From positions 1 through 13,407 of the IMG/VR virus record IMGVR_UViG_2537562172_000003: a stretch of 13,407 bases of DNA. One strand, written 5' to 3'. Source of the stretch: a virus (taxonomy: Duplodnaviria; Heunggongvirae; Uroviricota; Caudoviricetes). Below, in pieces: positions 1-13,407 of this stretch. The notes under the pieces were generated by a model. It saw only the letters and a program-made list of their open reading frames with translations, searched no databases and had not been told where the DNA came from. The position numbers and the translations under genes were made by a program. Positions within the stretch are counted from its first letter, which is position 1, and each line of letters begins with the position of its first letter.

Positions 1-1284
1 TTACTTCTTCGCCTCTGCAACCACTTTACTACCCACGCCGCGGTTATTGTATTCCCACATGCGGTTGTAGTTAGTGTCATTCAGATTGCGCTGTATTTCG
101 TCGTTATCATCTACGCTGCCGGTATTACCCGCAAACGGACGATTAGAGATCACCGCATCGGCCCACGGTTTAGCCGTGTTAAAACCTTCGTTGATGGCGC
201 TATCACGGATCACCACCTGACCGTTGGTATTGGCATCAACATCCAGCGAGCGGCCCAGTTGCGCCACACCATCACCGAAAGCATTGAAACGGCTGTTTAC
301 GGCGAGGAAACCGTAGTAAATGTTGGACAGCGTAGCCGGTGCAAACACATACGCTTCTTGCTGAGTACGTGAGTTCACCACGCGGAATTCGGTGTTATCG
401 AACACCACTGCGCCGCGACCAGAAACGATATCCACATCCCCTTCAATGTAGCTGTTGGTCACCAGCGTACGCGGCTGACGATTTGTTTCCAGACGGTTCT
501 GCACACCGCTGTTGGTGACAAAGAAGGTGTTCTGACGACCGAGAATGTTAACGTTGTTAATCTGTACCTGGTCACCATCAGTACGCAGTGCCACCGCCGG
601 ATGGTTACCTGCATCTACGCTATCGCCCAGCGTGTTTTCGATGGTCAGATTTTGCAGTTGCAGGCCATTGTTTTGTGACCAGAAGACCGCAGAGCAGAGA
701 ACACCGATACTGTCGCTGCGTTTGCTCTGGCAGCTATCGTACATATACCACGCTGGTTTACCTGGCATATATTTGCCGCGCGGGTTGACGTCGTGACGCC
801 AGTCGGCAGGGCTCATGCCACCATCAAGGGAAAGCCCAATCTTCACATCAATCGGTTTTTCACCTGTACCGTACAGAGTAATTCCACCCGGAGCGGCAGG
901 GACATATACCGTTCCCTGATACTCACCAGGCATCACGGCAATATACTGGCGCTTGTTGGTACGCTTGATAATTGCCGCATCTACCGCCGCCTGAATCGTG
1001 GTATGCGTTACACCTTGAGTGCCCGCCGGGCCGACAACAAAGTCAGGTTGCGCAGGCAGGGTAATCGGGGAAGGATTCCACGCTGCAGCACCTGGTGTCA
1101 GGGATGCAAAATAGTGTTGAGCATCGAAATTCTGCGCTTCTTTTGCCGACAGAATCGGGCGAGAAGAGGTACCAGGCGCGGTTTGATCAGAAGGACGTTG
1201 ATCGGGCGGGGTTGAGCTACAGGCGGTCAGCGTCACGCCAAAAGCCAATGCCAGCGCCAGACGGGAAACTGAAAATGTGTTCAC
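1..1284 (-). CDS. ybhC: YbhC-type lipoprotein (pectinesterase-like fold; annotated in E. coli as putative acyl-CoA thioesterase); host gene flanking att-lambda
   Basis: Complete 427-aa ORF, TAA stop at 1-3, GTG start at 1282-1284 preceded by GGAG. N-terminus MNTFSVSRLALALAFGVTLTACSS is a lipoprotein signal with lipobox LTAC. Sequence recognised from memory as E. coli YbhC, whose gene neighbours attB-lambda. Confidence 0.85.
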   Translation of the reverse strand: MNTFSVSRLALALAFGVTLTACSSTPPDQRPSDQTAPGTSSRPILSAKEAQNFDAQHYFASLTPGAAAWNPSPITLPAQPDFVVGPAGTQGVTHTTIQAAVDAAIIKRTNKRQYIAVMPGEYQGTVYVPAAPGGITLYGTGEKPIDVKIGLSLDGGMSPADWRHDVNPRGKYMPGKPAWYMYDSCQSKRSDSIGVLCSAVFWSQNNGLQLQNLTIENTLGDSVDAGNHPAVALRTDGDQVQINNVNILGRQNTFFVTNSGVQNRLETNRQPRTLVTNSYIEGDVDIVSGRGAVVFDNTEFRVVNSRTQQEAYVFAPATLSNIYYGFLAVNSRFNAFGDGVAQLGRSLDVDANTNGQVVIRDSAINEGFNTAKPWADAVISNRPFAGNTGSVDDNDEIQRNLNDTNYNRMWEYNNRGVGSKVVAEAKK

Positions 1285-1330
1285 AGGTTGCTCCGGGCTA
1301 TGAAATAGAAAAATGAATCCGTTGAAGCCT

Positions 1331-1422
1331 GCTTTTTTATACTAAGTTGGCATTATAAAAAAGCATTGCTTATCAATTTGTTGCAACGAACAGGTCACTA
1401 TCAGTCAAAATAAAATCATTAT
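1331..1422. other. attL: Lambda-type attL (B-O-P'): 15-bp core plus P' arm
   Basis: Exact lambda core GCTTTTTTATACTAA at 1331-1345. P' arm follows: IHF H'-like TATCAATTTGTTG at 1371-1383, Int arm-type sites AGGTCACTAT (1393-1402), CAGTCAAAAT (1402-1411), AAAATCATTAT (1412-1422) overlapping the int stop codon. Bacterial flank TGAAGCCT precedes the core. Confidence 0.88.
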
Positions 1423-2489
1423 TTGATTTCAATTTTGTCCCACTCCCTGCCTCTGTCATCACGATACTGTGATGCCATGGTGTCCGACTTATGCCCGAGA
1501 AGATGTTGAGCAAACTTATCGCTTATCTGCTTCTCATAGAGTCTTGCAGACAAACTGCGCAACTCGTGAAAGGTAGGCGGATCCCCTTCGAAGGAAAGAC
1601 CTGATGCTTTTCGTGCGCGCATAAAATACCTTGATACTGTGCCGGATGAAAGCGGTTCACGACGAGTAGATGCAATTATGGTTTCTCCGCCAAGAATCTC
1701 TTTGCATTTATCAAGTGTTTCCTTCATTGATATCCCGAGAGCATCAACATGCAATGTTGTTGGGATGGCAATTTTTACGCCTGTTTTGCTTTGCTCGACA
1801 TAAAGATATCCATCTACGATATCAGACCACTTCATTTCGCATAAATCACCAACTCGTTGCCCGGTAACAACAGCCAGTTCCATTGCAAGTCTGAGCCAAC
1901 ATGGTGATGATTCTGCTGCTTGATAAATTTTCAGGTATTCGTCAGCCGTAAGTCTTGATCTCCTTACCTCTGATTTTGCTGCGCGAGTGGCAGCGACAGG
2001 GTTTGTTGTTATATGGCCTTCAGCTATTGCCTCTCGGAATGCATCGCTCAGTGTTGATCTGATTAACTTGGCTGACGCCGCCTTGCCCTCGTCTATGTAT
2101 CCATTGAGCATTGCCGCAATTTCTTTTGTGGTGATGTCTTCAAGTGGAGCATCAGGCAGACCCCTCCTTATTGCTTTAATTTTGCTCATGTAATTTATGA
2201 GTGTCTTCTGCTTGATTCCTCTGCTGGCCAGGATTTTTTCGTAGCGATCAAGCCATGAATGTAACGTAACGGAATTATCACTGTTGATTCTCGCTGTCAG
2301 AGGCTTGTGTTTGTGTCCTGAAAATAACTCAATGTTGGCCTGTATGGCTTCAGTGATTGCGATTCGCCTGTCTCTGCCTAATCCAAACTCTTTACCCGTC
2401 CTTGGGTCCCTGTAGCAGTAATATCCATTGTTTCTTATATAAAGGTTAGGGGGTAAATCCCGGCGCTCATGACTTCGCCTTCTTCCCAT
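1419..2489 (-). CDS. int: Lambda integrase (tyrosine recombinase), 356 aa
   Basis: ORF translation matches lambda Int essentially along its whole length as remembered (MGRRRSHERRDLPPNLYIRNNGYY ... DDRGREWDKIEIK); overlaps xis 3' end as in lambda; adjacent to the P' arm. Confidence 0.96.
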   Translation of the reverse strand: MGRRRSHERRDLPPNLYIRNNGYYCYRDPRTGKEFGLGRDRRIAITEAIQANIELFSGHKHKPLTARINSDNSVTLHSWLDRYEKILASRGIKQKTLINYMSKIKAIRRGLPDAPLEDITTKEIAAMLNGYIDEGKAASAKLIRSTLSDAFREAIAEGHITTNPVAATRAAKSEVRRSRLTADEYLKIYQAAESSPCWLRLAMELAVVTGQRVGDLCEMKWSDIVDGYLYVEQSKTGVKIAIPTTLHVDALGISMKETLDKCKEILGGETIIASTRREPLSSGTVSRYFMRARKASGLSFEGDPPTFHELRSLSARLYEKQISDKFAQHLLGHKSDTMASQYRDDRGREWDKIEIK

Positions 2490-2685
2490 TTCTGATCCTC
2501 TTCAAAAGGCTACCTGTTACTGGTCGATTTAAGTCAACCTTTACCGCTGATTCGTGGAACAGATACTCTCTTCCATCCTTAACCGGAGGAGGGAATATCC
2601 TGCACTCGCGTACCCATCGACGAACTGTTTCAAGGCTTCTTGGGCGTCGCTGGCGTGCGTTCCACTCCTGAAGTGTCAAGTACAT
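2467..2685 (-). CDS. xis: Lambda excisionase, 72 aa
   Basis: Translation MYLTLQEWNARQRRPRSLETVRRWVRECRIFPPPVKDGREYLFHESAVKVDLNRPVTGSLLKRIRNGKKAKS matches lambda Xis; 23-nt overlap with int. Confidence 0.96.
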   Translation of the reverse strand: MYLTLQEWNARQRRPRSLETVRRWVRECRIFPPPVKDGREYLFHESAVKVDLNRPVTGSLLKRIRNGKKAKS

Positions 2686-2711
2686 CGCAAAGTCTCCGCA
2701 ATTACACGCAA

Positions 2712-2733
2712 GAAAAAACCGCCATCAGGCGGC
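2712..2733 (-). terminator. Putative intrinsic terminator between the 55-aa ORF and xis
   Basis: Minus-strand hairpin CCGCC-TGAT-GGCGG (plus coordinates 2719-2732) followed by a T6 run (A-run 2713-2718 on the plus strand). Confidence 0.4.
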
Positions 2734-2892
2734 TTGGTGTTCTTTCAGTTCTTCAATTCGAATATTGGTTACGTCTGCATGTGCTATCTGCGCCCACAGC
2801 ATCCAGTGGTCATAGCAGTCGCTGATGTTCTCGGCTTCGATAACTCTGTTGAATGGTTCTCCATTCCATTCACCTGTGACTCGGAAGTGCAT
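2725..2892 (-). CDS. Small 55-aa hypothetical protein upstream of xis (probably the lambda orf55 equivalent)
   Basis: Not in the ORF track (under 60 aa). Minus-strand ATG at 2890-2892 preceded by GGAG; translation MHFRVTGEWNGEPFNRVIEAENISDCYDHWMLWAQIAHADVTNIRIEELKEHQAA; stop at 2725-2727. The 39-nt gap to xis matches what I recall for a 55-aa ORF in lambda, from memory only. Confidence 0.5.
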   Translation of the reverse strand: MHFRVTGEWNGEPFNRVIEAENISDCYDHWMLWAQIAHADVTNIRIEELKEHQAA

Positions 2893-2904
2893 TTATCATC
2901 TCCA

Positions 2905-2929
2905 TAAAAAAAACTCGCCGTAGCGAGTT
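2905..2929 (-). terminator. Putative intrinsic terminator
   Basis: Minus-strand hairpin AACTCGC-TACG-GCGAGTT (plus 2912-2929) followed by a T7-8 run. Confidence 0.4.
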
Positions 2930-3088
2930 CAGATAAAAGAAATCCCCGCGAGTGCGAGGATAGTTATTCATTGTCGATATTTACATTTATTTCGAATATC
3001 TTTACTGGGTAATCGCCAAAGTCATATATTTTTTATTCTGTTTTATAAGCACTACCAAGTACTGCTTATTACAAATAAGAAAAGGCTG

Positions 3089-3118
3089 AAAAAAATATTT
3101 AAGGCCACAACTGTGGCC
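3089..3118 (-). terminator. Putative intrinsic terminator downstream of the DUF1311-like gene
   Basis: Perfect 6-bp stem GGCCAC/GTGGCC with 4-nt loop (3103-3118) just after the stop at 3129, followed on the minus strand by a T-rich run (plus-strand A-run 3089-3097). Confidence 0.45.
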
Positions 3119-3128
3119 CTAAATTTAC

Positions 3129-3827
3129 TTACGGCACTGCGTTAATCAGATTACAAATACCTCTTTTGGCAGGGTCTGAATTCAACTTCTGAAAATTGGC
3201 GTTCAACATAGCCGTGTGTAAGTGATTCTCAACCTCAAAGAATAGGTCGATTTTGCCCTCTTTGGCTGCCTGTTTCTTCCAAATATTCACTTGGTCATCA
3301 GCAATACGACTAGCGCAAGTGAACAAGAACGAACTGCCTCTAGGAATGGATGTCGTGCTGTAATACTCACCATCTACTTCTACATATTTAGCTCGGAATG
3401 ACTCTAAGGTTAGCTTATTGCCGTTCTTGACCGACTTAGCTTCTGCCTTACTTGTATCTTCCTGCTCTTTAGAATGTTTCTGCGCCGACGTGGGTATGTC
3501 ATTGGCCGCTGTTACGCTGACTGAACTCCCCAAACCTTTGAGGCCATTAATTTGGATAAGATAAGCCAGCTCCAGAGCCTTATTATCAGTGAGTTTTCCA
3601 CGCATATTTACCCACTGACGTTGAACCATTTTTAGGGTGTCTGCGTTCTCTGGGTTTCCTTTGAGGGCACTAGAATAGGCAGAGCTAAGCTGTTCGTCTA
3701 ATTTTGACAGACGTTCGTTCTCGCAGATTTTATGTTCGATTGCTGTCGAAGCCTTTTGGCAGTCAAAGCTGGCTGCAAATGCACCCGGCGATGCCACTAA
3801 CAATGATGCCAGTAGGATATTTTTCAT
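3129..3827 (-). CDS. Secreted protein with an N-terminal DUF1311 (LprI-like lysozyme-inhibitor) type domain, 232 aa; non-lambda cargo
   Basis: ORF 3129-3854; preferred start is ATG at 3825-3827 (MKNILLASLLVASPGAFA, signal peptide with AFA-A cleavage motif) preceded by GGAG. Mature N-terminus SFDCQKASTAIEHKICENERLSKLDEQLSSAYSSAL resembles the conserved Cys-containing DUF1311 motif, assigned from memory. Not a lambda gene. Confidence 0.7.
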   Translation of the reverse strand: MKNILLASLLVASPGAFAASFDCQKASTAIEHKICENERLSKLDEQLSSAYSSALKGNPENADTLKMVQRQWVNMRGKLTDNKALELAYLIQINGLKGLGSSVSVTAANDIPTSAQKHSKEQEDTSKAEAKSVKNGNKLTLESFRAKYVEVDGEYYSTTSIPRGSSFLFTCASRIADDQVNIWKKQAAKEGKIDLFFEVENHLHTAMLNANFQKLNSDPAKRGICNLINAVP

Positions 3828-3957
3828 ATTCACTCCATAAATACAAAAGCGCATTACTATAGCACTTAACCGATCGCTTATCTCGCCCGTTCGTCATTCT
3901 TATCTAACCAGAACATGCGACTGCCACAGCACATGTCGAGGATTGCTGCATGTCCAG

Positions 3958-4371
3958 TCACTGGTTGCCTCCTTTGCGAAGCTGGGCGGCTAACTCATCA
4001 CATATGTGCGTCAAAGAGCAAAGTTTGATTGATGGATGTTCGCGCATCATCTCCACCCCCTGCGCCCGTACTTCAGCCAGGAAAGCATCGGTGGCTGGCA
4101 TATTTCCTGTTGCCTTCATGGCCTCCAAAATAACCAGAACACCATCTCTCCCAATCTCCTCGCAGATAACCTCGGTGCTGTCGCCAACAACATCGCAGAA
4201 TTCCTGAACTGCTTTACGAGCCAGCTCATTCTCCGCCGCCAGCGCCGAAAACTTCTCGTGTGCCAACTTAACAGCTGCATCAGCCTGCTTAATTGACTCA
4301 GTCGCTTTCTGGTGGTCTTCGGCCAGCCCTGCTAAATCAGCCTCCAGTTCGGCTACGGGACCAGCCATCAA
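3958..4371 (-). CDS. Hypothetical 137-aa protein (coiled-coil-rich N-terminus), possibly a remnant or fusion at the substitution junction
   Basis: Longest ORF in this segment and in the same orientation as the operon. Its first codons lie inside the bet remnant in another frame, so the true start is uncertain. No motif recognised. Confidence 0.35.
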   Translation of the reverse strand: MMAGPVAELEADLAGLAEDHQKATESIKQADAAVKLAHEKFSALAAENELARKAVQEFCDVVGDSTEVICEEIGRDGVLVILEAMKATGNMPATDAFLAEVRAQGVEMMREHPSIKLCSLTHICDELAAQLRKGGNQ

Positions 4372-4606
4372 CGCCCACCACCGGAACGATGCCGTTCTGC
4401 TTATCAGGGAAGGCGTAAATTTCTTTCGTCCACGGATTAAGGCCGTACTGGTTGGCGACGATCAACAATGCGATGAACTGCGCATCGCTGGCATCACCTT
4501 TAAATGCCGTCTGGCGAAGAGTGGTGATCAGTTCCTGTGGGTCGACAGAATCCATGCCGACACGTTCAGCCAGCTTCCCAGCCAGCGTTGCGAGTGCTGT
4601 ACTCAT
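4337..4606 (-). pseudogene. bet: Truncated lambda bet (Red-beta): first ~84 codons, then 5 unrelated codons and a stop
   Basis: Translation MSTALATLAGKLAERVGMDSVDPQELITTLRQTAFKGDASDAQFIALLIVANQYGLNPWTKEIYAFPDKQNGIVPVVGVDGWSR matches the lambda Bet N-terminus, then diverges (SRTGG-stop); lambda Bet is 261 aa. exo is absent. Confidence 0.88.
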
Positions 4607-4611
4607 CCGTT

Positions 4612-5028
4612 TTATACCTCTGAATCAATATCAACCTGATGGTGAGCAATGGTTTCAACCATGTACCGGATGTGTTCTGCCATGCGCTCCTGAAACTCAA
4701 CATCGTCATCAAACGCACGGGTAATGGCTTTTTTGCTGGCCCCGTGGCGTTGCAAATGATCGATGCATAGCGATTCAAACAGGTGCTGGGGCAGGCCTTT
4801 TTCCATGTCGTCTGCCAGTTCTGCCTCTTTCTCTTCACGGGCGATCTGCTGGTAGTGACGCGCCCAGCTCTGAGCCTCAAGACGATCCTGAATGTAATAA
4901 GCGTTCATGGCTGAACTCCTGAAATAGCTGTGAAAATATCGTCCGCGAAATGCCGGGCTGATTAGAAAAACAGGGAAGGGGGGTAGTGAATGCTTTTGCT
5001 TGATCTCAGTTTCAGTATTAATATCCAT
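4612..5028 (-). CDS. gam: Lambda Gam (RecBCD inhibitor), 138 aa
   Basis: Translation matches lambda Gam ([15 protein letters not shown]...[10 protein letters not shown]) with a few substitutions relative to my recollection (e.g. SLPPFPV here vs SLTPFPV). Confidence 0.95.
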
Positions 5029-5126
5029 TTTTTATAAGCGTCGACGGCCTCACGAAACATCTTTTCATCGCCAATAAAAGTGGCGATAGTGAATTTAGTC
5101 TGGATAGCCATAAGTGTTTGATCCAT
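4962..5126 (-). CDS. kil: Lambda Kil (FtsZ-inhibiting host-killing protein), here 54 aa (about 47 aa in lambda as I recall)
   Basis: Start [47 protein letters not shown] at 5124-5126, overlapping the cIII 3' end and the gam 5' end as in lambda. The ORF runs 7 codons further (YPPSLFF) than the remembered lambda stop. Confidence 0.7.
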
Positions 5127-5259
5127 TTTTTGGGACTCCTGGCTGATTAAGTATGTCGATAAGGCGTTTCCATCCGTCACGTAATTTACGGGTGATTCGT
5201 TCAAGTAAAGATTCGGAAGGGCAGCCAGCAACAGGCCACCCTGCAATGGCATATTGCAT
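5095..5259 (-). CDS. cIII: Lambda CIII (FtsH/HflB inhibitor), 54 aa
   Basis: Not in the ORF track (under 60 aa). Minus-strand translation from ATG 5257-5259: [54 protein letters not shown], matching lambda CIII; preceded by TAAGGAG. Confidence 0.92.
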   Translation of the reverse strand: MQYAIAGWPVAGCPSESLLERITRKLRDGWKRLIDILNQPGVPKNGSNTYGYPD

Positions 5260-5331
5260 GGTGTGCTCCTTATTTATACATAACGAAAAACGCCTCGAGT
5301 GAAGCGTTATTGGTATGCGGTAACGCCGCGC

Positions 5332-5700
5332 TCAGGCGGCTTTGATAGTCATATCATCTGGATCAAATATTCCTGATGTATCGATATCGGTAATTCTTAT
5401 TCCTTCGCTACCATCCATTGGAGGCCATCCTTCCTGACCATTTCCATCATTCCAGTCGAACTCACACACAACACCATATGCATTTAAGTCGCTTGAAATT
5501 GCTATAAGCAGAGCATGTTGCGCCAGCATGATTAATACAGCATTTAATACAGAGCCGTGTTTATTGAGTCGGTATTCAGAGTCTGACCAGAAATTATTAA
5601 TCTGGTAAAGTTTTTCCTCTGTCATTACGTCATGGTCGATTTCAATTTCTATTGATGCTTTCCAGTCGTAATCAATGATGTATTTTTTGATGTTTGACAT
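5332..5700 (-). CDS. ea10: Lambda Ea10-like early protein, 122 aa
   Basis: 122-aa ORF 72 nt upstream of cIII, the same size and spacing as lambda ea10 as I remember it; SD GAGGA upstream of the ATG. Acidic C-terminus. Confidence 0.7.
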   Translation of the reverse strand: MSNIKKYIIDYDWKASIEIEIDHDVMTEEKLYQINNFWSDSEYRLNKHGSVLNAVLIMLAQHALLIAISSDLNAYGVVCEFDWNDGNGQEGWPPMDGSEGIRITDIDTSGIFDPDDMTIKAA

Positions 5701-5719
5701 CTATTCATATCCTCACAGA

Positions 5720-5746
5720 TAAAAAATCGCCCTCATACTGGAGGGC
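5720..5746 (-). terminator. Putative hairpin/terminator upstream of ea10
   Basis: Minus-strand stem GCCCTC-CAGTAT-GAGGGC (plus 5729-5746) followed by GATTTTTT. Confidence 0.35.
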
Positions 5747-5861
5747 AAAGAAGATTTCCAATAATCAGAACAAGTCGACTCCTGTTTAGTTACGAGCGAC
5801 ATTGCTCCGTGTATTCACTCGTTGGAATGAATACACAGTGCAGTGTTTATTCTGTTGTTTG

Positions 5862-5889
5862 CGTGAAAATGAAACCCGCCTGAGCGGGT
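5862..5889 (-). terminator. Putative intrinsic terminator downstream of the orphan 289-aa gene
   Basis: Minus-strand stem ACCCGC-TCAG-GCGGGT (plus 5874-5889) followed by TTTCATTTT; overlaps the stop codon at 5889-5891. Confidence 0.45.
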
Positions 5890-6758
5890 TATGACCACTT
5901 TTTGTTTGGATTTCGTTGGTGAGCGTGGTTTACAGGATTATTTGATATACCCCATAACTCTGACTCGCTTATCTCTACACGAGAGAAAGACCTGCTTTCT
6001 TTCAGTTCTTTTATAAACCTAGAACCTACGATGACATCTATTGTCCCAGAAAGTTCTTGTAAAAGATCTTTGTTTTTTCTGAGGAAGAAAACATCTTCTT
6101 TATATTTAATTTTTACATAGAATTTATTCTGTATTTTTAATATATCAAAGCATGGCAGATATCTATATCCCTCATGCTTTCGCCACTGCTTAACAATTAT
6201 AACATCTCTTTCATTTACTGCATTAATCAGCCCAAGACCAAGTATAGGTATGAATATTCTATTGTCTGCCGAAAGCGTACAATTATTACCACCAGGCAAA
6301 TATGTATAAATCATGTCGGAATTTTTATACGCATCAACGAATGCACGTAAGAATCGTACATATTTTTGCCATCCGTTTATACCAAATTTACCATATAAGT
6401 ATTCTTTATTTGTTAGAAGAAAACTATTTGTATCAGGAGCCTTATCTACAGACCTGTCGATAAGATCTCCAACTACGTTTACAAAGTCAAAGACAGAGTT
6501 TAATAAGAACAATTGTCTTTCAGTCGGGCGAATTTCAATTATGTAGCCTGGATGAAGACGATATTGCATCTGCTTACGAAGTATGCTGAACGCTTGGGTC
6601 CGGGCATCTGAAAGCAACTTCCTGTCGCCATCGCCGTGAGCATTGTTTCTAATAAAACTGATATAATTTGCTAATTTTTCAGCCTCTTTTTTGTGTTTTT
6701 TTCGCTCTGATGCTGAGTCTATTGGTTTTGGTATGGACTTGTAATCAATTTTCTTCAT
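5889..6758 (-). CDS. Orphan AT-rich protein of unknown function (289 aa from ATG 6758; 293 aa from ATG 6770), in the ral-sieB slot; candidate superinfection-exclusion or abortive-infection factor
   Basis: Uninterrupted 294-codon ORF; visibly AT-rich compared with flanking lambda genes. First ATG (6768-6770) overlaps the N stop codon (ATGA); second ATG (6756-6758) has a well-spaced GAGG SD. Lys-rich N-terminus; no Walker, HTH or catalytic motif recognised. Not a lambda gene. Confidence 0.75.
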   Translation of the reverse strand: MKKIDYKSIPKPIDSASERKKHKKEAEKLANYISFIRNNAHGDGDRKLLSDARTQAFSILRKQMQYRLHPGYIIEIRPTERQLFLLNSVFDFVNVVGDLIDRSVDKAPDTNSFLLTNKEYLYGKFGINGWQKYVRFLRAFVDAYKNSDMIYTYLPGGNNCTLSADNRIFIPILGLGLINAVNERDVIIVKQWRKHEGYRYLPCFDILKIQNKFYVKIKYKEDVFFLRKNKDLLQELSGTIDVIVGSRFIKELKESRSFSRVEISESELWGISNNPVNHAHQRNPNKKWS

Positions 6759-6766
6759 TACGTACC

Positions 6767-7090
6767 TCATGCCAATGGAATGGATTTCCCTTTAACCTTT
6801 TGTCTTCCTTGACAAGTTATACCGAACTCACTTGGCTTGCTATACCAAACTCGATGATTCTTGCGCTCAATACGTTGCAGGTTGCTTTCAATCTGTTCGT
6901 GGTATTCAGCCAGCACCGTAAGGTCTATCGGATTCAGTGCGCTTTCTACTCGTGATTTCGGTTTGCGATTCAGCGAGAGAATAGGGCGGTTAACTGGTTT
7001 TGCGCTTACCCCAACCAACAGGGGATTTGCTGCTTTCCATTGAGCCTGTTTCTCTGCGCGACGTTCGCGGCGGCGTGTTTGTGCATCCAT
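6767..7090 (-). CDS. N: Lambda N antiterminator, 107 aa
   Basis: Translation from MDAQTRRRERRAEKQAQWKAANPLLVGVSAKPVNRPILSLNRKPKSRVESALNPIDLTVLAEYH... matches lambda N (arginine-rich motif at the N-terminus). The track ORF extends 26 codons upstream into the leader. Confidence 0.93.
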   Translation of the reverse strand: MDAQTRRRERRAEKQAQWKAANPLLVGVSAKPVNRPILSLNRKPKSRVESALNPIDLTVLAEYHEQIESNLQRIERKNHRVWYSKPSEFGITCQGRQKVKGKSIPLA

Positions 7091-7248
7091 CTGGATTCTC
7101 TTGTCAGTTAGCTTTGGTGGTGTGTGTGAGTCGTAGTCCTGAACGAAAACACCCCACGATTGGCTCATTTGCAGCTAATCCGGATTCGCACTTCCGGCCA
7201 ATGCTTCGTTTCGTATCACACACCCCAAAGCCTTCTGCTTTGAATGCT

Positions 7249-7280
7249 GCCCTTCTTCAGGGCTTAATTTTTAAGAGCAT
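7249..7280 (-). promoter_or_regulatory. nutL: nutL (boxB hairpin and boxA)
   Basis: Minus-strand reading TGCTCTTAAAAATTAAGCCCTGAAGAAGGGCAGCA: boxB GCCCTGAAGAAGGGC (plus 7249-7263) and boxA-like TGCTCTTA (plus 7271-7278), about 160 nt upstream of the N start as in lambda. Confidence 0.88.
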
Positions 7281-7312
7281 CACCTTCAATGGTGGTCAGT
7301 GCGTCCTGCTGA

Positions 7313-7393
7313 TGGCTTAAAATTACAAGAAAGATTGTATGTTGTAAACAAGAAATATTGTAAAAAAGGGGCATGAAAAACAAACTCCATTGT
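7313..7393 (-). promoter_or_regulatory. pL promoter with phage-434 OL operators
   Basis: Three 14-bp 434-type operators ACAAGAAAGATTGT (7325-7338), ACAAGAAATATTGT (7348-7361), ACAAACTCCATTGT (7380-7393). Minus-strand -35 TTTACA (plus 7343-7348) and -10 TAATTT (plus 7320-7325) with 17-bp spacer; start near 7313 (ATCAGCAGGACG, lambda-like). Confidence 0.75.
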
Positions 7394-7443
7394 TTTTAAA
7401 CGGAAAATAGTTTGTTTTTTGGTTATCGAGATTGAGGTGGGGA

Positions 7444-8799
<1,356 letters not shown>

Positions 8800-8807
8800 G
8801 ACATTCC

Positions 8808-8839
8808 CGCTCTTACACATCCCAGCCCTGAAAAAGGGC
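8808..8839 (+). promoter_or_regulatory. nutR: nutR (boxA and boxB)
   Basis: boxA CGCTCTTA at 8808-8815; boxB hairpin GCCCTGAAAAAGGGC at 8825-8839; followed by the lambda-like cro-cII leader. Confidence 0.88.
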
Positions 8840-8918
8840 ATCAAATTAAACCACACCTATGGTGTATGCATTTATTTGCATACATTCAATCAATTGTTAT
8901 CTAAGGAAATACTTACAT

Positions 8919-9350
8919 ATGGTTCGTGCAAACAAACGCAACGAGGCTCTACGAATCGAGAGTGCGTTGCTTAACAAAATCGCAATGCTTGGAACTGAGA
9001 AGACAGCGGAAGCTGTGGGCGTTGATAAGTCGCAGATCAGCAGGTGGAACCCTGAGACGGTCGCAAGATGGCTTGATGCGATGGCAAACCTTGAGCGACG
9101 AAACGCGCAGTTTAATGAGTTTAAAGCCGAGTGGATGAGCGCGAATGGCAATCCAGGACAATCGCGTAATGGCGGTCAGATATTGGGGTTGGATGTTAAA
9201 AAAGGTGAATCATTGGGGAGTGCCGTTAAGCGGTATATGTCAATGAATACTGACGCAGCGCCAGCACAAGATTCGACACCTTCAGGAGAACCACGGTATC
9301 AGGTTGGATCATATACCTCAAAATCAGGCATTCAATTTACGGTGGAATGA
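8919..9350 (+). pseudogene. cII: Truncated cII: codons 1-43 fused in frame to ~100 codons from the 3' end of a late (gp20-like ejection protein?) gene
   Basis: MVRANKRNEALRIESALLNKIAMLGTEKTAEAVGVDKSQISRW matches lambda CII residues 1-43; after about 9047 the sequence is unrelated to CII (lambda CII is 97 aa). The stop overlaps the start of the gp16-like gene, which suggests the tail of the upstream gene in a P22-like late operon. Confidence 0.75.
8928..8941 (-). promoter_or_regulatory. CII-binding site of pRE (TTGC-N6-TTGC)
   Basis: Minus-strand TTGCGTTTGTTTGC inside the first codons of cII, as in lambda pRE. Confidence 0.5.
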
Positions 9351-11191
9351 TGAAAGTAACTGCAAACGGTAAGACATTTACCTTCCCTGATGGTACGAGC
9401 ACGGAAGATATTGGCACCGCCATTGATGAGTATTTTGCTGGTCAGGCTGTTCAGCAACAAACAGTTAATCAGGCCAATAATGCACCAACACGGGAAGAAC
9501 CATCATTAATGCAACAAGCTGGCGATTGGCTCACTGGTGGTCAAAGTGCAGGGCAAATTGCAGAACAGGCTGGTCGTGGTCTGGTAAACATACCATTTGA
9601 CGTATTGCAGGGTGGCGCAAGTCTGATTAATGCAATCAGTCAGGGGCTTGGTGGGCCAAAAGTATTGGATGATGTCTATCGTCCAGTCGATCGACCGACA
9701 GACCCTTATGCGCAAGCTGGAGAAACAATTGGCGGGTATTTAGTTCCAGGAGTTGGAACGGCAGGAAGCATGGCTATTGGATCACTGGCAGAGGCCGCAA
9801 ATCAGAAAGGCGATTTCGCACAAAATGCAGCTAAAAATGCCGGAGTTAACCTTGTCGCTCAGGGTGTTCTTTCCGCAGCAGCAAAGGGAATAGGGCGTGG
9901 AATAACGGCTATAAAAGGTGATATTGCGCCAGAAGTGGCGAAGAAAATTGCCACATCAGAATCGATGGGCGTGACACCAATGACATCTGATGTTATCCCG
10001 CCGAAAAATGCTTTCACTCGCGGCCTTACTCAGGATTCCGAGGGGGCTTTGCTCGGGACAGGCTCAAAGCGAGCGGAGCAATATGCAACGCGTAGTAAGC
10101 TGGTAAGTAATTATTTTGACCGTTTTGGTGAGTACAACCCGGATGATGTGGTGAAATCTCTGACCACCACGTTAAGGGGGCGGAAGGATGCCGCTGGCGC
10201 TGTTATCAATGACGTCACCAATAAAATGGGTAATGCCGCAGTTGATACCACAAATACCATGAATGCTCTGAATACAGCGATCGCAAGACAGGAACGGCTT
10301 GGGACGTCTGCTAATCAAAGCCTGCTTACATCCTTGCGTAACCTACGTGAAGAATTAGCAAACCCTGCAACTGATTTGGATGTTACGTTTGATCTCTTGC
10401 GTCAGCATAGAACGGCATTTAGATCTAATGTTCAGGGAGATGCTATGGTCTTCCCCAACCAGGCAAAAGCAGCTACCAATATGGTAGAGAATGCAATGTC
10501 AAAAGACCTTCGTAACGCAGTTGCTAAAAACCTCGGTGCTTCAGACGCAGCAAAATACCTTAAAGCAAATTCCGATTATGCAAACGTTTATAATAAGGTG
10601 CTTAATAAAAACATTGCTAACAAGCTCAACAAGGCAAGCAGTGAAGCCAGTCCTGAACTTATAAATACCGTTGTATTAAGCAGAAAACCATCTGACGTGA
10701 AACGAATTTGGAGCGCATTGGATGATAAAGGGAAAGATGCTATGCGTGCAGCTTACGTCAGCAAAATAGCGGAAAAGGCCGGTGACTCTCCAGCCAAGTT
10801 CATCACTGAAGTTAATAAGCTGAAATCTCAGTCAGGTGGTGAAATTTACAACACTATTTTTTCTGGAAAGCACATGAAAGAGCTTGATGCTCTTCATGAA
10901 GTTCTACAGCAAACAGCAAGGTCAGACACCGCAAATGTAGTAACTCAGACGGGGCAATCGCAAGCCAACAGGATAAGGACGATTGGCGCAACTGCGACTC
11001 TTGGCGTATCAATGGGGATTGAGGCTGGTTTCGGTGCAATGATGCGCTTGTATGAGTCCAAAGTAGCAAGGAATGCTCTCTTACGTCTGGCAAACACTAA
11101 AGCTGGAACGCCGGCTTATGAAAGAGCGCTAAATAATGCTGCAAATGCGATACGCCCTATACTTGCAAGCCAGATTACAGCAGAACAATAG
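9347..11191 (+). CDS. P22 gp16-like ejection (DNA-transfer) protein, 614 aa
   Basis: Large Ala/Gly/Gln-rich protein; size and position (immediately before the tailspike) fit gp16-type injection proteins; start ATGATG overlaps the upstream stop (alternative start 9350). Confidence 0.65.
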
Positions 11192-11264: not shown

Positions 11265-11321
11265 TTCCAAAAATTCACCGTAGCCACGCTGCGGCGATTC
11301 CTTGCATCTGGAGCAAATTAA

Positions 11322-13407
11322 ATGACAGACATTACAGCCAATGTGATCGTATCGATGCCTTCGCAACTCTTCACTATGGCGCGTTCTTTTAAAGCCGTAG
11401 CCAATGGCAAAATTTATATCGGTAAAATTGACACTGACCCGGTAAATCCTGAAAACCAGATTCAGGTTTATGTAGAAAACGAAGATGGTTCTCATGTTCC
11501 TGTTTCGCAACCAATCATCATTAACGCTGCTGGATATCCGGTATACAACGGACAGATTGTCAAATTCGTTACTATACAGGGCCATTCTATGGCTGTTTAT
11601 GATGCGTACGGTTCTCAGCAGTTCTATTTTCCTAATGTCCTGAAGTATGACCCTGACCAATTAAGGCAAGAATTAGCTTCTGACAGAGGAGCAACATTAT
11701 CATTAAGTCAGATAGCTACTTCTTACGGTCTTGATTTCTCGTTAGGCGGTGTATGGCAGGAGGGGGCGTTATCTTATGTTGATAACTGGTGGTGGTATAA
11801 TAATAAAATCTACACCGGTGGTAGCGGAAATCTGCCATCTATCCCATCAGCACCGTGGTATCCAATTCGCCCGGGATACAATTTTAAACTTAACAGACTT
11901 TATTACCTCCAAGGGTGTGAGCGATATTCTTGACGTAGTGGACTGGCAATGGGCTTTTGATAGCGCAAAATTAAACGCCAAAAACACAACAGTTATAGAT
12001 ATGGACGGTCGTGAATACGCGGTTACCGGAGGCGGTTACGTTATGCATCAGGGAGTTAGTCTGAGAGGTGCTCGCGATGCTATGCAAAACCCTTCTGTCG
12101 ATGGTTTGAGTATTGTTTATATTAACAAGACACCTTCAGCCTCTGATGTCATTTTTATTCTACGCGGCGGAAACTTGCTTGAAGACTTTGGCGTCTACTA
12201 TGCTCAACAAACATATGCGGCGCTATCTGCCATGGTTGACGTCGGAATTCTGTTTAAAAAGCTACCAGGAACTGGTGGGACAGATGCTATAAATACAAAA
12301 GGCTGCATAGTTAAAGGGGTAAGCGCCTGCGGTGTGAGTAAGTTTTACTCCGGTTCTTATGCAGATAACGCGCCTGGTGAGTACGACGATGTTAGTCGAG
12401 TCGCTGTTACACCTACACCTTATGGGCCATCGTTTAGGCTTGGAATTAGCACAGACTTACTTCGATACCAAACTATTCATATAAACGCCAATGTCGTCAG
12501 TGCGTACAGAGCAAAGTACGGTGTTGACATTTCACCTCGTGCGCTACCATCAAGCTATACATCTTGCGTGGGATTTCTTGTTGAACGCGCGGATGGATGT
12601 ACGATTCACGACATTCTTACTTATGGTGTCCCGTATCCTGTCGTACTGGGCGCTGTTGGCGCTACCGGAGGGACTCATGGGTGCAGTGTCAATTTATCTC
12701 AATGCGCATTCGATGCAACGCAAACACCTGTCTACATAAACTGCCCGACAGGTGCGTTTGGTGTTCAACTTTCAAACTGTCAGGTTGTATTCGACGAGAA
12801 ATTCGGAGATTCTAACGGGCAATTAATATACTTAGGATCCGCGGCAAGCAATCATCAAGTCTCGCTTTCTAATATTAAAGTGCAAATGACAGCCAATTTT
12901 AGCTACCGACCTGTTCGCGCTGTTTCTGAGAGTAAACAAAACAGGATAATGTTTAGTGATTGCGCGTTAACAGGTAGCGCTAATAACCTTGATGAAGGAA
13001 CTGGCAACCGTATAAGTTTAATCCAAAGTACAAGGAATTTAGGTAACCTAAACTTAATGACCAATCTAACGCCGGAGAGTTCGTTGGTTTCAAGTATGGG
13101 GGAGCTCAATACTATTGTTAGACATTCAGTTAGTGTCACTGTTCAACAAGGAGCAACATTTGCGAACATCTCAGTTACATACCCTTACTCAGGATTTATA
13201 TCGGCACCTAATGTCAAGACAGAAATAACATCGGTTAGTATTTCTGGTCAAAGTGATGACACGATGTACACATCAAGGGCGTATGGCAGAAGTCAATCAG
13301 GGTGCGTCATCAGAGTGAACTTGTCGAAGGCTGCAGTGGCAACTGGTGCACTGACAGTAGATCTATACCTGATTGGAACAGTAAGGGGGGAACTAACATC
13401 TGTGTAG
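11322..13407 (+). CDS. P22/HK620-type tailspike: conserved N-terminal head-binding domain plus divergent receptor-binding domain; reading frame shifts +1 in the 11749-11933 overlap
   Basis: N-terminus [113 protein letters not shown] matches tailspike head-binding domains; SD GGAG upstream. The 11322-11933 ORF stops and the protein continues in the +1 frame (11749-13407, TAG at 13405-13407). Confidence 0.75.

Follow-up and report, generated by a model that had tools for sequence, protein, structure and literature searches.

How a segment with no resemblance to lambda came to lie next to a truncated bet gene, in a prophage arm that otherwise follows lambda closely, is the question raised by this locus. 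The window, i.e., the whole stretch of 13,407 nucleotides that was analysed, is 100% identical to the chromosome of E. coli ETEC4073. An earlier note, made from the letters alone, took the segment for about 1.4 kb of foreign DNA that had replaced the exo-ea22-ea8.5 region in one step. Our analysis points instead, with high confidence, to a decayed lambda/434-type prophage at att-lambda (ybhC/ybhB) in pig ETEC, in which an older alternative gene module was followed by a simple 2312-bp deletion.

Comparison with lambda (NC_001416) by BLASTN gave two blocks of homology. Window positions 1331-2967 correspond to lambda 27724-29361 (98.6%) and include the att core, int, xis, the 55-aa orf and the intergenic hairpins, and positions 4356-5860 correspond to lambda 32560-34064 (98.3%). 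Lambda identity begins at the attL core (1331), and BLASTN found no lambda match within the 1388 bp from 2968 to 4355. Both junctions are thereby mapped, at 2967/2968 and 4355/4356. The BLASTN block ends, a three-way alignment and the translation of bet all place the second one inside bet, as the earlier note had claimed; its estimate that lambda identity in Bet ends at about codon 84, near 4352, is borne out and can be sharpened to 4355/4356. The loss of Exo and the shortening of Bet, which it attributed to a recombination scar, are likewise real, as the prophage contains no exo and 84 of 261 Bet residues are left, and a recombination or deletion scar is supported as the cause. The features of this arm are as follows.

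1331-1345, plus strand: attL core GCTTTTTTATACTAA, an exact match to locus L002 13331-13345, at the left end of a 19.2-kb remnant.
1419-2489, minus strand: int, lambda-type, annotated as integrase in the source record.
2467-2685, minus strand: xis, lambda-type, annotated as excisionase in the source record.
2725-2892, minus strand: 55-aa orf, a full-length match to PHROG 676, annotated as hypothetical protein in the source record.
3958-4355, minus strand: 3' 73% of an ea22-like gene, codons 51-182 and stop, with the first 50 codons deleted and 0 nucleotide mismatches to the APEC O2-211 prophage (L003).
3958-4368, minus strand: chimeric 136-aa ORF, annotated WP_000918569.1, made of four out-of-frame bet-DNA codons (MAGP), one junction codon and 131 ea22-like codons.
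4354-4355: deletion junction, a TA microhomology common to both parental flanks, placed by three-way register alignment and BLASTN block ends.
4337-4606, minus strand: bet pseudogene, in which Bet residues 1-84 are followed by SRTGG and a stop.
4612-5272, minus strand: gam, kil, cIII and the cIII thermoregulator, intact by annotation, 98.3% identical to lambda.

The segment is not restricted to this element. Known lambdoid phages and prophages carry it: over 2968-4355 the att-lambda prophage of APEC O2-211 (NZ_CP006834.2) has 0 mismatches to the window, and phage ev099 (NC_049953) is 99.9% identical and gives the same deletion pattern. Window 2-4355 aligns with L003 1001-5354 (99.3%) and window 4354-9049 with L003 7667-12360 (99.94%). 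Between these two blocks, 2312 bp of the intact relative (L003 5355-7666) are absent here, spanning from ea22-like codon 51 to bet codon 84. The genes lost are the 5' end of the ea22-like gene, orf73 (TraR/DksA-like), orf61, orf63, orf60a, all of exo and bet codons 85-261. The segment is thus contiguous, unaltered phage DNA, which contradicts a one-step replacement, although intact exo and bet are found only in the relatives and not in this element.

The difference from lambda on the left side belongs to another event. In the intact relatives, a 1494-bp module (L003 3967-5460) replaces lambda 29362-30351, which is ea8.5 and ea22 from about codon 15. The first ~15 codons of the relatives' ea22-like gene are DNA common to lambda ea22, and the encoded protein shares 53% identity with lambda Ea22 over the first 45 aa, while the remainder is unrelated. 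Of 5426 complete E. coli genomes, 124 carry the alternative module at a coverage of at least 80%. Since an intact relative carries it and so many genomes have it, the module is older than the deletion. The locus is therefore two independent events superimposed, an old mosaic module and a later deletion.

The earlier note advised looking for microhomology at 4350-4356, and a 2-bp TA is present at 4354-4355 but nothing longer; the three-way alignment revealed no longer homology around either breakpoint. A 2-bp overlap is close to chance expectation and is thus hardly informative on how the ends were joined. Direct observation covers the junction, the nature of its two flanks, the missing content and the frames, as well as the distribution described below, whereas the breakage and joining are inferred. 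We infer from present-day relatives that the ancestor was probably a lambdoid phage of the ev099 or APEC O2-211 type, with the alternative module between xis/orf55 and exo. Later, in the prophage state, a single illegitimate and essentially homology-independent deletion of 2312 bp would have joined ea22-like codon 51 to bet codon 84 at TA. Gam, Kil and cIII remain intact, while exo is gone and Bet is cut. The reading frames are not fused: bet' stops 5 codons past the junction, and ea22' is readable only from a fortuitous out-of-frame ATG.

The consequence for the Red module can be read from Bet itself. Residues 1-84 of the bet ORF are identical to lambda Bet and are followed by 5 out-of-frame codons and a stop instead of the full 261 aa; PGAP labels the product "recombinase RecT, incomplete, missing C-terminus", and the Pfam RecT match covers residues 24-84, corresponding to model positions 5-67 of 198. 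In the solved structures 7UJL, 8TFU and 6M9K, Bet is divided into two separate domains, residues 1-178 and residues 182-261, and the 84 residues left here are therefore only a piece of the first one. Bet' thus holds less than half of the annealase N-terminal domain and no C-terminal domain. No exo lies between bet' and ea22', while Gam is intact (4612-4908/5028, minus strand), annotated as a host-nuclease inhibitor of the Gam family with about 98% DNA identity to lambda. Red recombination from this element is probably abolished, because Exo is missing and Bet' lacks most of the annealase domain. The gam-kil-cIII genes are the kept portion of the early-left operon upstream of the scar.

On the other side of the junction, the 137-aa ORF that had been read as a separate foreign gene does exist (TTG start, 3958-4371; or 136 aa from the ATG at 4368), but it equals residues 51-182 of an Ead/Ea22-family protein (WP_001289879.1), with 131 of 132 residues identical. 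Hence ea22 was truncated by the deletion rather than replaced. The intact 182-aa relative matches the Pfam family Ead_Ea22 (PF13935, 38 bits with a cut-off of 27) over residues 25-96, whereas the 136-aa ORF matches no Pfam family, PF13935 included. Given this lack of a match together with the near-identity to residues 51-182, the ORF is best read as a fragment of an Ead/Ea22 member and not as an intact member. Its matches to PHROGs 492, 368 and 614 are to Ea22-type families of unknown function, and within the exo-xis region it occupies the place that Ea22 has in lambda and ev099, after exo and before xis. The conserved N-terminus and variable C-terminal domain of the relatives fit the Ea22 diversity described previously (PMC7093339). 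A PDB search returned no solved structure related to the Ea22-like protein. An in-frame Bet-Ea22 fusion was considered and rejected, as the frames of bet and ea22' differ.

The main alternative is that a single recombination placed about 1.4 kb of foreign, non-phage DNA in a lambda prophage, with crossovers inside bet and near orf55. Against lambda alone this is what the locus looks like, a 1388-bp non-homologous block between two lambda-identical blocks. However, intact phages and prophages carry the block joined without a break to its left flank, at 99.9-100% identity, and in them it continues rightward into ea22-like codons 1-50, orf73, orf61, orf63, orf60a, exo and bet. Its right end falls in the middle of an ORF of the ea22 family, and its left boundary at 2967/2968 is common to the 124 genomes, in which the Red genes are mostly intact, making a foreign insert highly improbable. 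An assembly or sequencing artefact, in which a collapsed or chimeric contig joins two prophage regions, is barely credible. Prophage repeats often misassemble, yet nothing specific speaks for this here, and the same junction is seen in three complete RefSeq genomes that were assembled independently, in one more complete GenBank chromosome and in many drafts. Moreover, a 160-bp junction probe (80 bp of it bet) matches ETEC4073 at a single site, so there is no second lambda-type bet copy in that chromosome to collapse with.

The junction might also have made a functional new gene, either a Bet-Ea22 fusion or a truncated Ea22-like protein from the ATG at 4368, perhaps selected, e.g., as a dominant lysis-lysogeny modulator. 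The 136-aa ORF is open and annotated as a protein, it retains the whole variable C-terminal domain, which is thought to be the functional, phage-specific part of Ea22 (PMC7093339), and the scar is fixed in a clone. The differing frames nevertheless exclude a fusion protein, the ORF has lost part of the coiled-coil/Ead_Ea22 region so that Pfam misses the family, and only a weak GGUGG-type Shine-Dalgarno match is read before the ATG. All copies are identical, so selection is not assessable, and clonal descent accounts for fixation equally well. We consider a selected new gene improbable and retain the simple deletion in an older mosaic prophage as the explanation.

The distribution of the scar is narrow. 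Among 5426 complete E. coli genomes in RefSeq, 3 have it, all of them pig ETEC from Belgium; reading 32 index blocks added at least 24 public contigs. It always has the same neighbours and lies in the same 19-kb att-bounded remnant. A 60-mer spanning the junction is identical in six loci (L002 and L007-L011). The scar is a lineage marker for pig ETEC, and the junction at 4354-4355 is a clean clonal marker. No genome with the bet/ea22 deletion but without the rearrangement at cII, or the reverse, was seen among the 5426 complete genomes and the contigs read.

That second rearrangement lies at 9049, where the window switches at cII to P22-like late genes. The gene order runs from ybhC through int, xis, orf55, LprI, the hypothetical 136-aa ORF, the RecT pseudogene, gam, kil, cIII and DUF2528 to a 289-aa hypothetical protein, N, a hypothetical protein, a LexA-family repressor, an HTH protein and the cII pseudogene, followed by P22-type gp16, a tailspike and, further on, IntS, IS100 and an acyltransferase before ybhB. 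We take the immunity region to be 434-type and not lambda-type, from recognised 434 cI/cro sequences and the 434 match of a neighbouring gene. The second att core (L002 32525-32539) adjoins ybhB, 19.2 kb from the first. This att-bounded remnant lacks replication, lysis and morphogenesis modules, as expected of a defective prophage: its annotation includes no O/P, Q, lysis, head or tail-shaft genes and lists cII and bet as pseudogenes. The cIII thermoregulator (RF01804, 5214-5272, 88.5 bits) is the sole Rfam match in the window, with none in 2930-4355, and PADLOC defence models did not match LprI, ea22', the 289-aa ORF or a 103-aa ORF.

Within the module itself, the DNA between the 55-aa orf and the ea22-like remainder consists of the following features.

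2930-2911 and 2961-2942, minus strand: two terminator-like hairpins in lambda's own ea8.5-orf55 intergenic DNA, inside the lambda-identical block ending at 2967.
2968-3096: AT-rich spacer (GC 0.27), whose left end is the mosaic boundary with lambda at 2967/2968.
3097-3124, minus strand: intrinsic terminator of the LprI cassette, a 12-bp stem followed by a U-run.
3129-3827, minus strand: LprI/DUF1311-family protein, 232 aa, annotated WP_000789831.1 "lysozyme inhibitor LprI family protein".
3828-3896, minus strand: cassette leader, with a GGAG RBS placed 7 nt upstream of the ATG, and TGCTATAGT at 3864-3856 as a candidate extended -10.
3878-3961, minus strand: methyltransferase relic, the 5' end of a SAM-dependent methyltransferase gene, 27 codons and a stop.

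The two hairpins that the earlier note saw as flanking the foreign DNA are real (2961-2942, -12.1 kcal/mol, z -5.1; 2930-2911, -11.9, z -3.7), but the pair at 2911-2961 sits in lambda-identical DNA and not in the segment. The AT-rich spacer, previously given as 2930-3088, is corrected to 2968-3096. It accompanies the LprI gene in E. coli lambdoid prophages and is not homologous in the phage-plasmid SSU5. The region holds 7 terminator-like sites versus 1.7 +/- 1.4 in shuffles. The LprI terminator directly follows the ORF and is strong (-17.6 kcal/mol, z -4.57, 0 of 200 shuffles as stable), and SSU5 has the stem as well in conserved form; no hairpin of significance lies between the LprI gene and the stop of the ea22-like gene (z -0.38).

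Taken together, the LprI gene appears to be a self-contained moron-type cassette with a candidate extended -10, an RBS, an ORF and a strong terminator. The concept of morons, autonomous promoter-ORF-terminator cassettes between phage genes, reportedly stems from the HK97/HK022 comparison of Juhala and colleagues in 2000. Here, homology to the unrelated genome of SSU5 is confined to the cassette (83%, ~3090-3896; flanks unrelated), ending near 3896 with divergent DNA further upstream. The extended -10 is conserved there as TGATATAGT, the TGnTATAGT and the entire leader included, and is a candidate promoter as read from the sequence; a consensus promoter scan upstream of LprI gave no sigma-70 site, with -35 matches of only 3/6. 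The methyltransferase relic extends over the stop codon of the ea22-like gene and breaks off at the beginning of the LprI cassette. In hundreds of E. coli prophages the first part of the methyltransferase gene is ~94% identical to window 3873-3957, and the relic translation is VTGHAAILDMCCGSRMFWLDKNDERAR* compared with VTGHAAILDMCCGSRMFWFDKNDDRA... in O157.

The DUF1311-like secreted protein proposed earlier is confirmed as a family member, and its secretion is a reading of the N-terminus, where MKNILLASLLVASPGAFA|AS resembles a signal peptide (hydrophobic, AFA|AS). The 232-aa protein matches Pfam PF07007 LprI with 26.7 bits (cut-off 22, E 7.7e-6), over model positions 1-70 of 106 only, and PHROG 4675 with E 7.8e-94. 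Its three-helix DUF1311 part at the N-terminus is connected by a variable linker (~101-137) to a C-terminal domain of unknown fold. Of the cysteines C23, C35, C171 and C225, C35 and C171 are invariant in a distant alignment (A3), and C23 and C225 are found in most members. A word-indexed homolog search found only close relatives (65% identity or more), and an exhaustive HMMER search added distant two-domain relatives at 25-37% identity, with 5021 representative proteins matching at E<=0.001, nearly all via residues ~5-110. Most homologs are located on contigs of ~110 kb from Salmonella, Citrobacter, Enterobacter and Klebsiella. Purifying selection acts on the gene: compared with SSU5, dN/dS is 0.17 for the whole gene, 0.10 and 0.066 for its two domains and 1.1 for the linker. 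From a 16-sequence alignment AlphaFold2 produced a poor model (mean pLDDT 51.5, pTM 0.35), and a Foldseek search of it against the PDB gave nothing below E = 2, such matches being meaningless. When the PDB was searched by sequence and by profile, using the protein and a divergent alignment of 9 members, matches were at chance level only (E 0.39).

What the protein does is best approached through its family, which has been linked to cell-wall enzymes (PMC7933661; PMC12981562; PMC9796082). Experimental support for lysozyme inhibition by the LprI domain itself is lacking, and ScwA, which consists of an LprI domain only, leaves lysozyme resistance unaffected (PMC7933661). No MliC domain (PF09864) was found in the 232-aa protein by Pfam, and the name "lysozyme inhibitor LprI family" is unbacked by evidence for proteins without that domain. 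DUF1311 proteins are documented as T6SS immunity proteins (PMC12981562; PMC9796082). It is conceivable, if rather unlikely, that the cassette is a lysogenic-conversion gene, carried by phages and phage-plasmids, that encodes an orphan periplasmic immunity protein against peptidoglycan-degrading attackers, with its own promoter in a repressed, decaying prophage. Purifying selection on both domains, the autonomous anatomy and movement between unrelated mobile elements fit such a role. Candidate attackers are Etse4-type T6SS cell-wall effectors, host lysozyme and lysins of superinfecting phages.

The scar is an example of lambdoid prophage decay, in which a homology-independent deletion strips away Red functions together with the genes between exo and xis, but spares int/xis, gam, kil, the moron and the immunity region. 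It also illustrates that "foreign" DNA is over-called in mosaic lambdoid genomes when lambda is the sole comparison. All elements here were already annotated, and the event is an ordinary deletion beside a common alternative gene module. Its value is mostly bookkeeping, and the biological interest centres on the role of the phage-borne DUF1311 protein.

Compared with known systems, lambda has int, xis, orf55, bet (codons 1-84), gam, kil, cIII and ea10 in the same order and with ~98% identical DNA, whereas here ea8.5 and the body of ea22 are swapped for another module, and the deletion has taken exo and the small exo-xis ORFs and shortened bet. Phage ev099 and the APEC O2-211 prophage share the int-xis-orf55-LprI-ea22-like module at 99.6-100% nucleotide identity and have the same bet-gam-kil DNA, and the 434-type region of APEC O2-211 is 99.94% identical up to cII. 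Unlike the window, both keep the missing 2312 bp, from ea22-like codons 1-50 through bet codons 85-261, and encode between the breakpoints the 182-aa ead/Ea22-like protein, TraR/DksA, a hypothetical protein, DUF1382, DUF1317, the exonuclease and full bet. They run past cII into replication genes, in contrast to the P22-like late genes from 9049 here, and ev099 measures 47 kb against 19.2 kb for the remnant.

Like lambdoid morons, the LprI cassette has its own terminator and a plausible promoter of its own, is flanked by phage genes on both sides, overlies a gene relic and recurs in the unrelated SSU5. It is oriented with the pL operon, and read-through under N antitermination is therefore also expected. 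Like M. tuberculosis LprI, Salmonella ScwA and T6SS immunity proteins such as Etsi4 of EHEC, its product combines a PF07007 domain with conserved cysteines and predicted periplasmic export. M. tuberculosis LprI, however, has the MliC domain shown to be sufficient for lysozyme resistance (PMC7933661), which is absent here. Compared with the DUF1311/LprI periplasmic proteins in general, the 232-aa protein has no lipobox and carries another C-terminal domain, for which no solved or confidently predicted fold was found, and its gene is phage-borne with no adjoining effector gene.

Against phage lambda (NC_001416, BLASTN), window 1331-2967 corresponds to lambda 27724-29361 at 98.6% identity and window 4356-5860 to lambda 32560-34064 at 98.3%, with no lambda match for window 2968-4355. 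The bet ORF equals lambda Bet over residues 1-84 and continues with SRTGG and a stop at 4337, as anticipated in the earlier note, which placed the loss of Bet identity after about codon 84. That note read 2930-4355 as a foreign substitution for exo-ea22-ea8.5, a reading we replace by a known lambdoid module and a plain 2.3-kb deletion. The non-lambda DNA is not exotic: Escherichia phage ev099 shows 99.9% identity over window 2400-4355, and a prophage at att-lambda in E. coli APEC O2-211 matches windows 2-4355 and 4354-9049 with 99.3% and 99.94% identity, with 0 mismatches over 2968-4355. In both relatives the segment is contiguous and exo and bet are intact, whereas the window itself lacks exo. 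The same two blocks are parted by 2312 extra bases in ev099 and APEC O2-211 alike; therefore, the window is an intact known phage type minus one simple deletion. In the intact relatives, the 2312 bp contain:

Codons 1-50 of a 182-aa ead/Ea22-like protein
TraR/DksA-type zinc-finger protein (orf73)
Hypothetical protein
DUF1382 (orf63)
DUF1317 (orf60a)
Lambda exonuclease
bet codons 85-261

In a three-way register alignment the junction falls at window 4354-4355, in a TA dinucleotide common to both parental flanks, and no longer homology is detected near the breakpoints. The earlier note had proposed looking for microhomology at 4350-4356. The deletion is essentially homology-independent, and illegitimate joining of a slippage or end-joining type probably made it; the joining pathway is not readable from a 2-bp overlap.

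The 137-aa ORF assigned to the foreign insert is present, but it is the ea22 homolog itself. Residues 5-136 of this 136-aa chimeric ORF agree at 131/132 positions with residues 51-182 of the Ea22-like protein in the relatives, while codons 1-4 (MAGP) are bet DNA out of frame, with the start ATG within GTTGATGGCTGG. Truncated bet and the ea22 remainder lie in different reading frames, which precludes a fusion protein. The intact Ea22-like protein belongs to Pfam Ead_Ea22, a family in which the chimeric ORF no longer scores. Only the first ~45 residues of the intact protein are common to lambda Ea22, which fits the published pattern, in which the N-terminal and coiled-coil parts of Ea22 proteins are conserved and the C-terminal domains are phage-specific (PMC7093339).

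The minus-strand terminator-like hairpins at 3124-3097, 2961-2942 and 2930-2911 are all real and far stabler than shuffles (z -3.7 to -5.1), but the pair at 2911-2961 belongs to the intergenic DNA of lambda itself. An AT-rich spacer also exists (GC 0.27), with limits of 2968-3096 instead of 2930-3088. Near it, the sole consensus sigma-70-like site (TTTACT-18-TATATT, window 3001-3030, plus strand, 9/12 matches) is directed rightward, antisense to the LprI gene; such sites occur in the region at chance level.

The chromosome of ETEC4073 (E. coli, pig faeces, Belgium) is 100% identical to the 13.4-kb window, and the sister strains ETEC1706 and ETEC4090 show 99.9-100% identity. The window starts inside ybhC and enters a prophage at att-lambda, annotated in this order:

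Host left and early genes: ybhC, int, xis, 55-aa orf, 'lysozyme inhibitor LprI family protein', 136-aa hypothetical
Continued: 'recombinase RecT, incomplete, missing C-terminus', gam, kil, cIII, DUF2528 (ea10), 289-aa hypothetical, N
Continued: hypothetical, LexA-family repressor, HTH protein, 'CII, incomplete'
Right end: P22-type genes, IntS, IS100, acyltransferase, then ybhB-bioA

The lambda att core GCTTTTTTATACTAA lies at window 1331-1345, and a second copy 19.2 kb onward adjoins ybhB; what remains of a ~47-kb phage is therefore a 19-kb element bounded by att sites.

The view that a recombination scar removed Exo and disabled Bet was borne out. The Exo gene is gone, and truncated bet retains 84 residues of the N-terminal domain (1-178 in the solved structure), with the C-terminal domain wholly missing; we infer that the remnant provides no Red recombination. 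A junction probe, 80 bp of it bet, has a single match in the ETEC4073 chromosome, hence this strain has no second lambda-type bet at that similarity level. Gam, Kil and cIII are intact, as is the cIII thermoregulator RNA upstream of cIII (window 5214-5272, minus strand; Rfam RF01804, 88.5 bits), and the pro-lytic exo-xis ORFs orf60a, orf63, orf61 and orf73 are all lost.

A second, larger rearrangement lies inside cII, where identity to lambda and the APEC prophage ends at 9049 (~codon 44):

8918-9094: truncated cII
9347-11191 and 11321-13407: P22/Sf101-type late genes, namely a gp16-type DNA transfer protein (614 aa, PHROG 770) and a tailspike with P22 head-binding domain

Past the window follow IntS, IS100, an acyltransferase and attR. 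As a lambda/434-type left part is joined to P22-type genes, the remnant is a lambda/434-P22-like hybrid, without replication, lysis or head genes. Window 7845-8799 encodes a repressor (210 aa) and a Cro-like protein, whose sequences we take to be those of cI and Cro from phage 434 (imm434), in keeping with the similarity of a neighbouring 289-aa gene to 434.

The latter ORF (5889-6758, minus strand; low GC, 0.32-0.39) lies directly downstream of N, where lambda has ral/sieB. Phage 434 has a gene 96.9% identical to it, which carries the annotation 'Nun C-terminal peptide-containing protein'. The final 20 residues of the ORF (...VNHAHQRNPNKKWS) match the C-terminal end of HK022 Nun-like termination factors (phrog_5632, E 4e-5), and its basic N-terminal stretch SERKKHKKEAEKLANY looks ARM-like. 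Downstream of the repressor, a 103-aa ORF (7444-7755, minus strand) replaces lambda rexAB, matches PHROG 2651 (an unknown-function family) and has a hydrophobic N-terminus resembling a lipoprotein or export signal. Neither ORF has a Pfam or PADLOC match.

The exact deletion junction occurs in 3/5426 complete E. coli genomes of RefSeq, each of them a pig ETEC from Belgium; among contigs read from 32 index blocks, at least 24 encode the chimeric protein. Wherever the contig reaches, its neighbours are the same on both sides, including the junction of truncated cII with P22 gp16, and the junction 60-mer is identical across all loci fetched. The scar is thus real; it does not stem from misassembly, and it marks a single clone. 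Among the 5426 genomes and the contigs read, no intermediates carry only the bet/ea22 deletion or only the cII rearrangement. In the related strain PSS-08-2 (positions 3501-4425 of its locus), which has the same att-lambda prophage type, an IS1A lies at the LprI-gene 3' end, ~55 bp past the point where sequence shared with the window stops (3139 is the final common base, 11 bp inside the gene's 3' end). Beyond it lies the nin region (NinX', rusA, quuD), so PSS-08-2 lost the LprI-to-nin stretch by an IS1-associated deletion. This loss by a different route shows repeated, independent decay of the prophage type.

The non-lambda module is older than the deletion. In APEC O2-211 it spans 1494 bp (3967-5460 of the prophage locus) in place of lambda 29362-30351, i.e., ea8.5 and ea22 from ~codon 15, and it is found in 124/5426 complete E. 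coli genomes (at least 80% coverage of window 2968-3957). The module itself is composite. Window 3878-3961 (minus strand) holds 27 codons, VTGHAAILDMCCGSRMFWLDKNDERAR*, with the motif ILDMCCGS, overlapping the ea22-like stop codon; the first 24/27 match the 5' end of a SAM-dependent methyltransferase gene found after ea22-type genes in hundreds of O157 and other prophages. This relic, cut where the LprI cassette starts, marks displacement of that gene by the cassette.

All elements are already annotated in public records, and mosaicism, morons and prophage decay are textbook; the function of the phage-borne DUF1311 protein is the only loose end deserving experiment. A DUF1311-like secreted protein had been predicted here, and the ORF indeed scores above the Pfam gathering score and has a signal-peptide-like N-terminus:

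3129-3827, minus strand: 232-aa LprI-like protein, Pfam PF07007 (LprI, formerly DUF1311)
Parts: putative signal peptide; DUF1311 three-helix part, ~19-100; variable linker, ~101-137; C-terminal domain, ~138-232

In alignments, C35 and C171 are invariant and C23 and C225 widely conserved. An exhaustive search matched the N-terminal domain to 5021 representative proteins, while the full two-domain architecture occurs in only a handful (25-37% identity). Against the copy in the Salmonella phage-plasmid SSU5, dN/dS is 0.17 overall (N domain 0.10, C domain 0.066, linker 1.1), and the protein is thus maintained. Its predicted structure is poor (pLDDT 51.5), and fold and PDB searches gave no relatives. 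The 'lysozyme inhibitor' name goes back to M. tuberculosis LprI, in which a separate MliC domain is sufficient to give lysozyme resistance, and the periplasmic Salmonella ScwA, with an LprI domain only, leaves lysozyme resistance unaffected (PMC7933661). Unlike M. tuberculosis LprI, the window's protein has no MliC domain in Pfam. For T6SS effectors that target the cell wall, DUF1311 proteins also serve, or are placed, as immunity proteins (PMC12981562, PMC9796082). Our best guess, a doubtful one, is that the protein might bind or inhibit a peptidoglycan hydrolase in the periplasm and so protect the lysogen to some degree.

The LprI cassette (window ~3090-3896) is the sole part common to SSU5, at 83% identity, and is also carried on many ~110-kb contigs of Salmonella, Citrobacter, Enterobacter and Klebsiella; outside its limits, SSU5 and the module are unrelated. 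The shared stretch comprises:

3864-3856: candidate extended -10, TGnTATAGT, conserved, read from sequence
Leader, identical in both, with GGAG 7 nt upstream of the ATG
ORF and terminator stem (computed -17.6 kcal/mol, z -4.6)

A consensus scan reported no sigma-70 promoter upstream of the LprI gene, and the extended -10 is a candidate for the cassette's own promoter. Juhala and colleagues are said to have described the anatomy of morons in 2000. The LprI cassette has this same anatomy, with a candidate promoter, leader, ORF and terminator between unrelated flanks.
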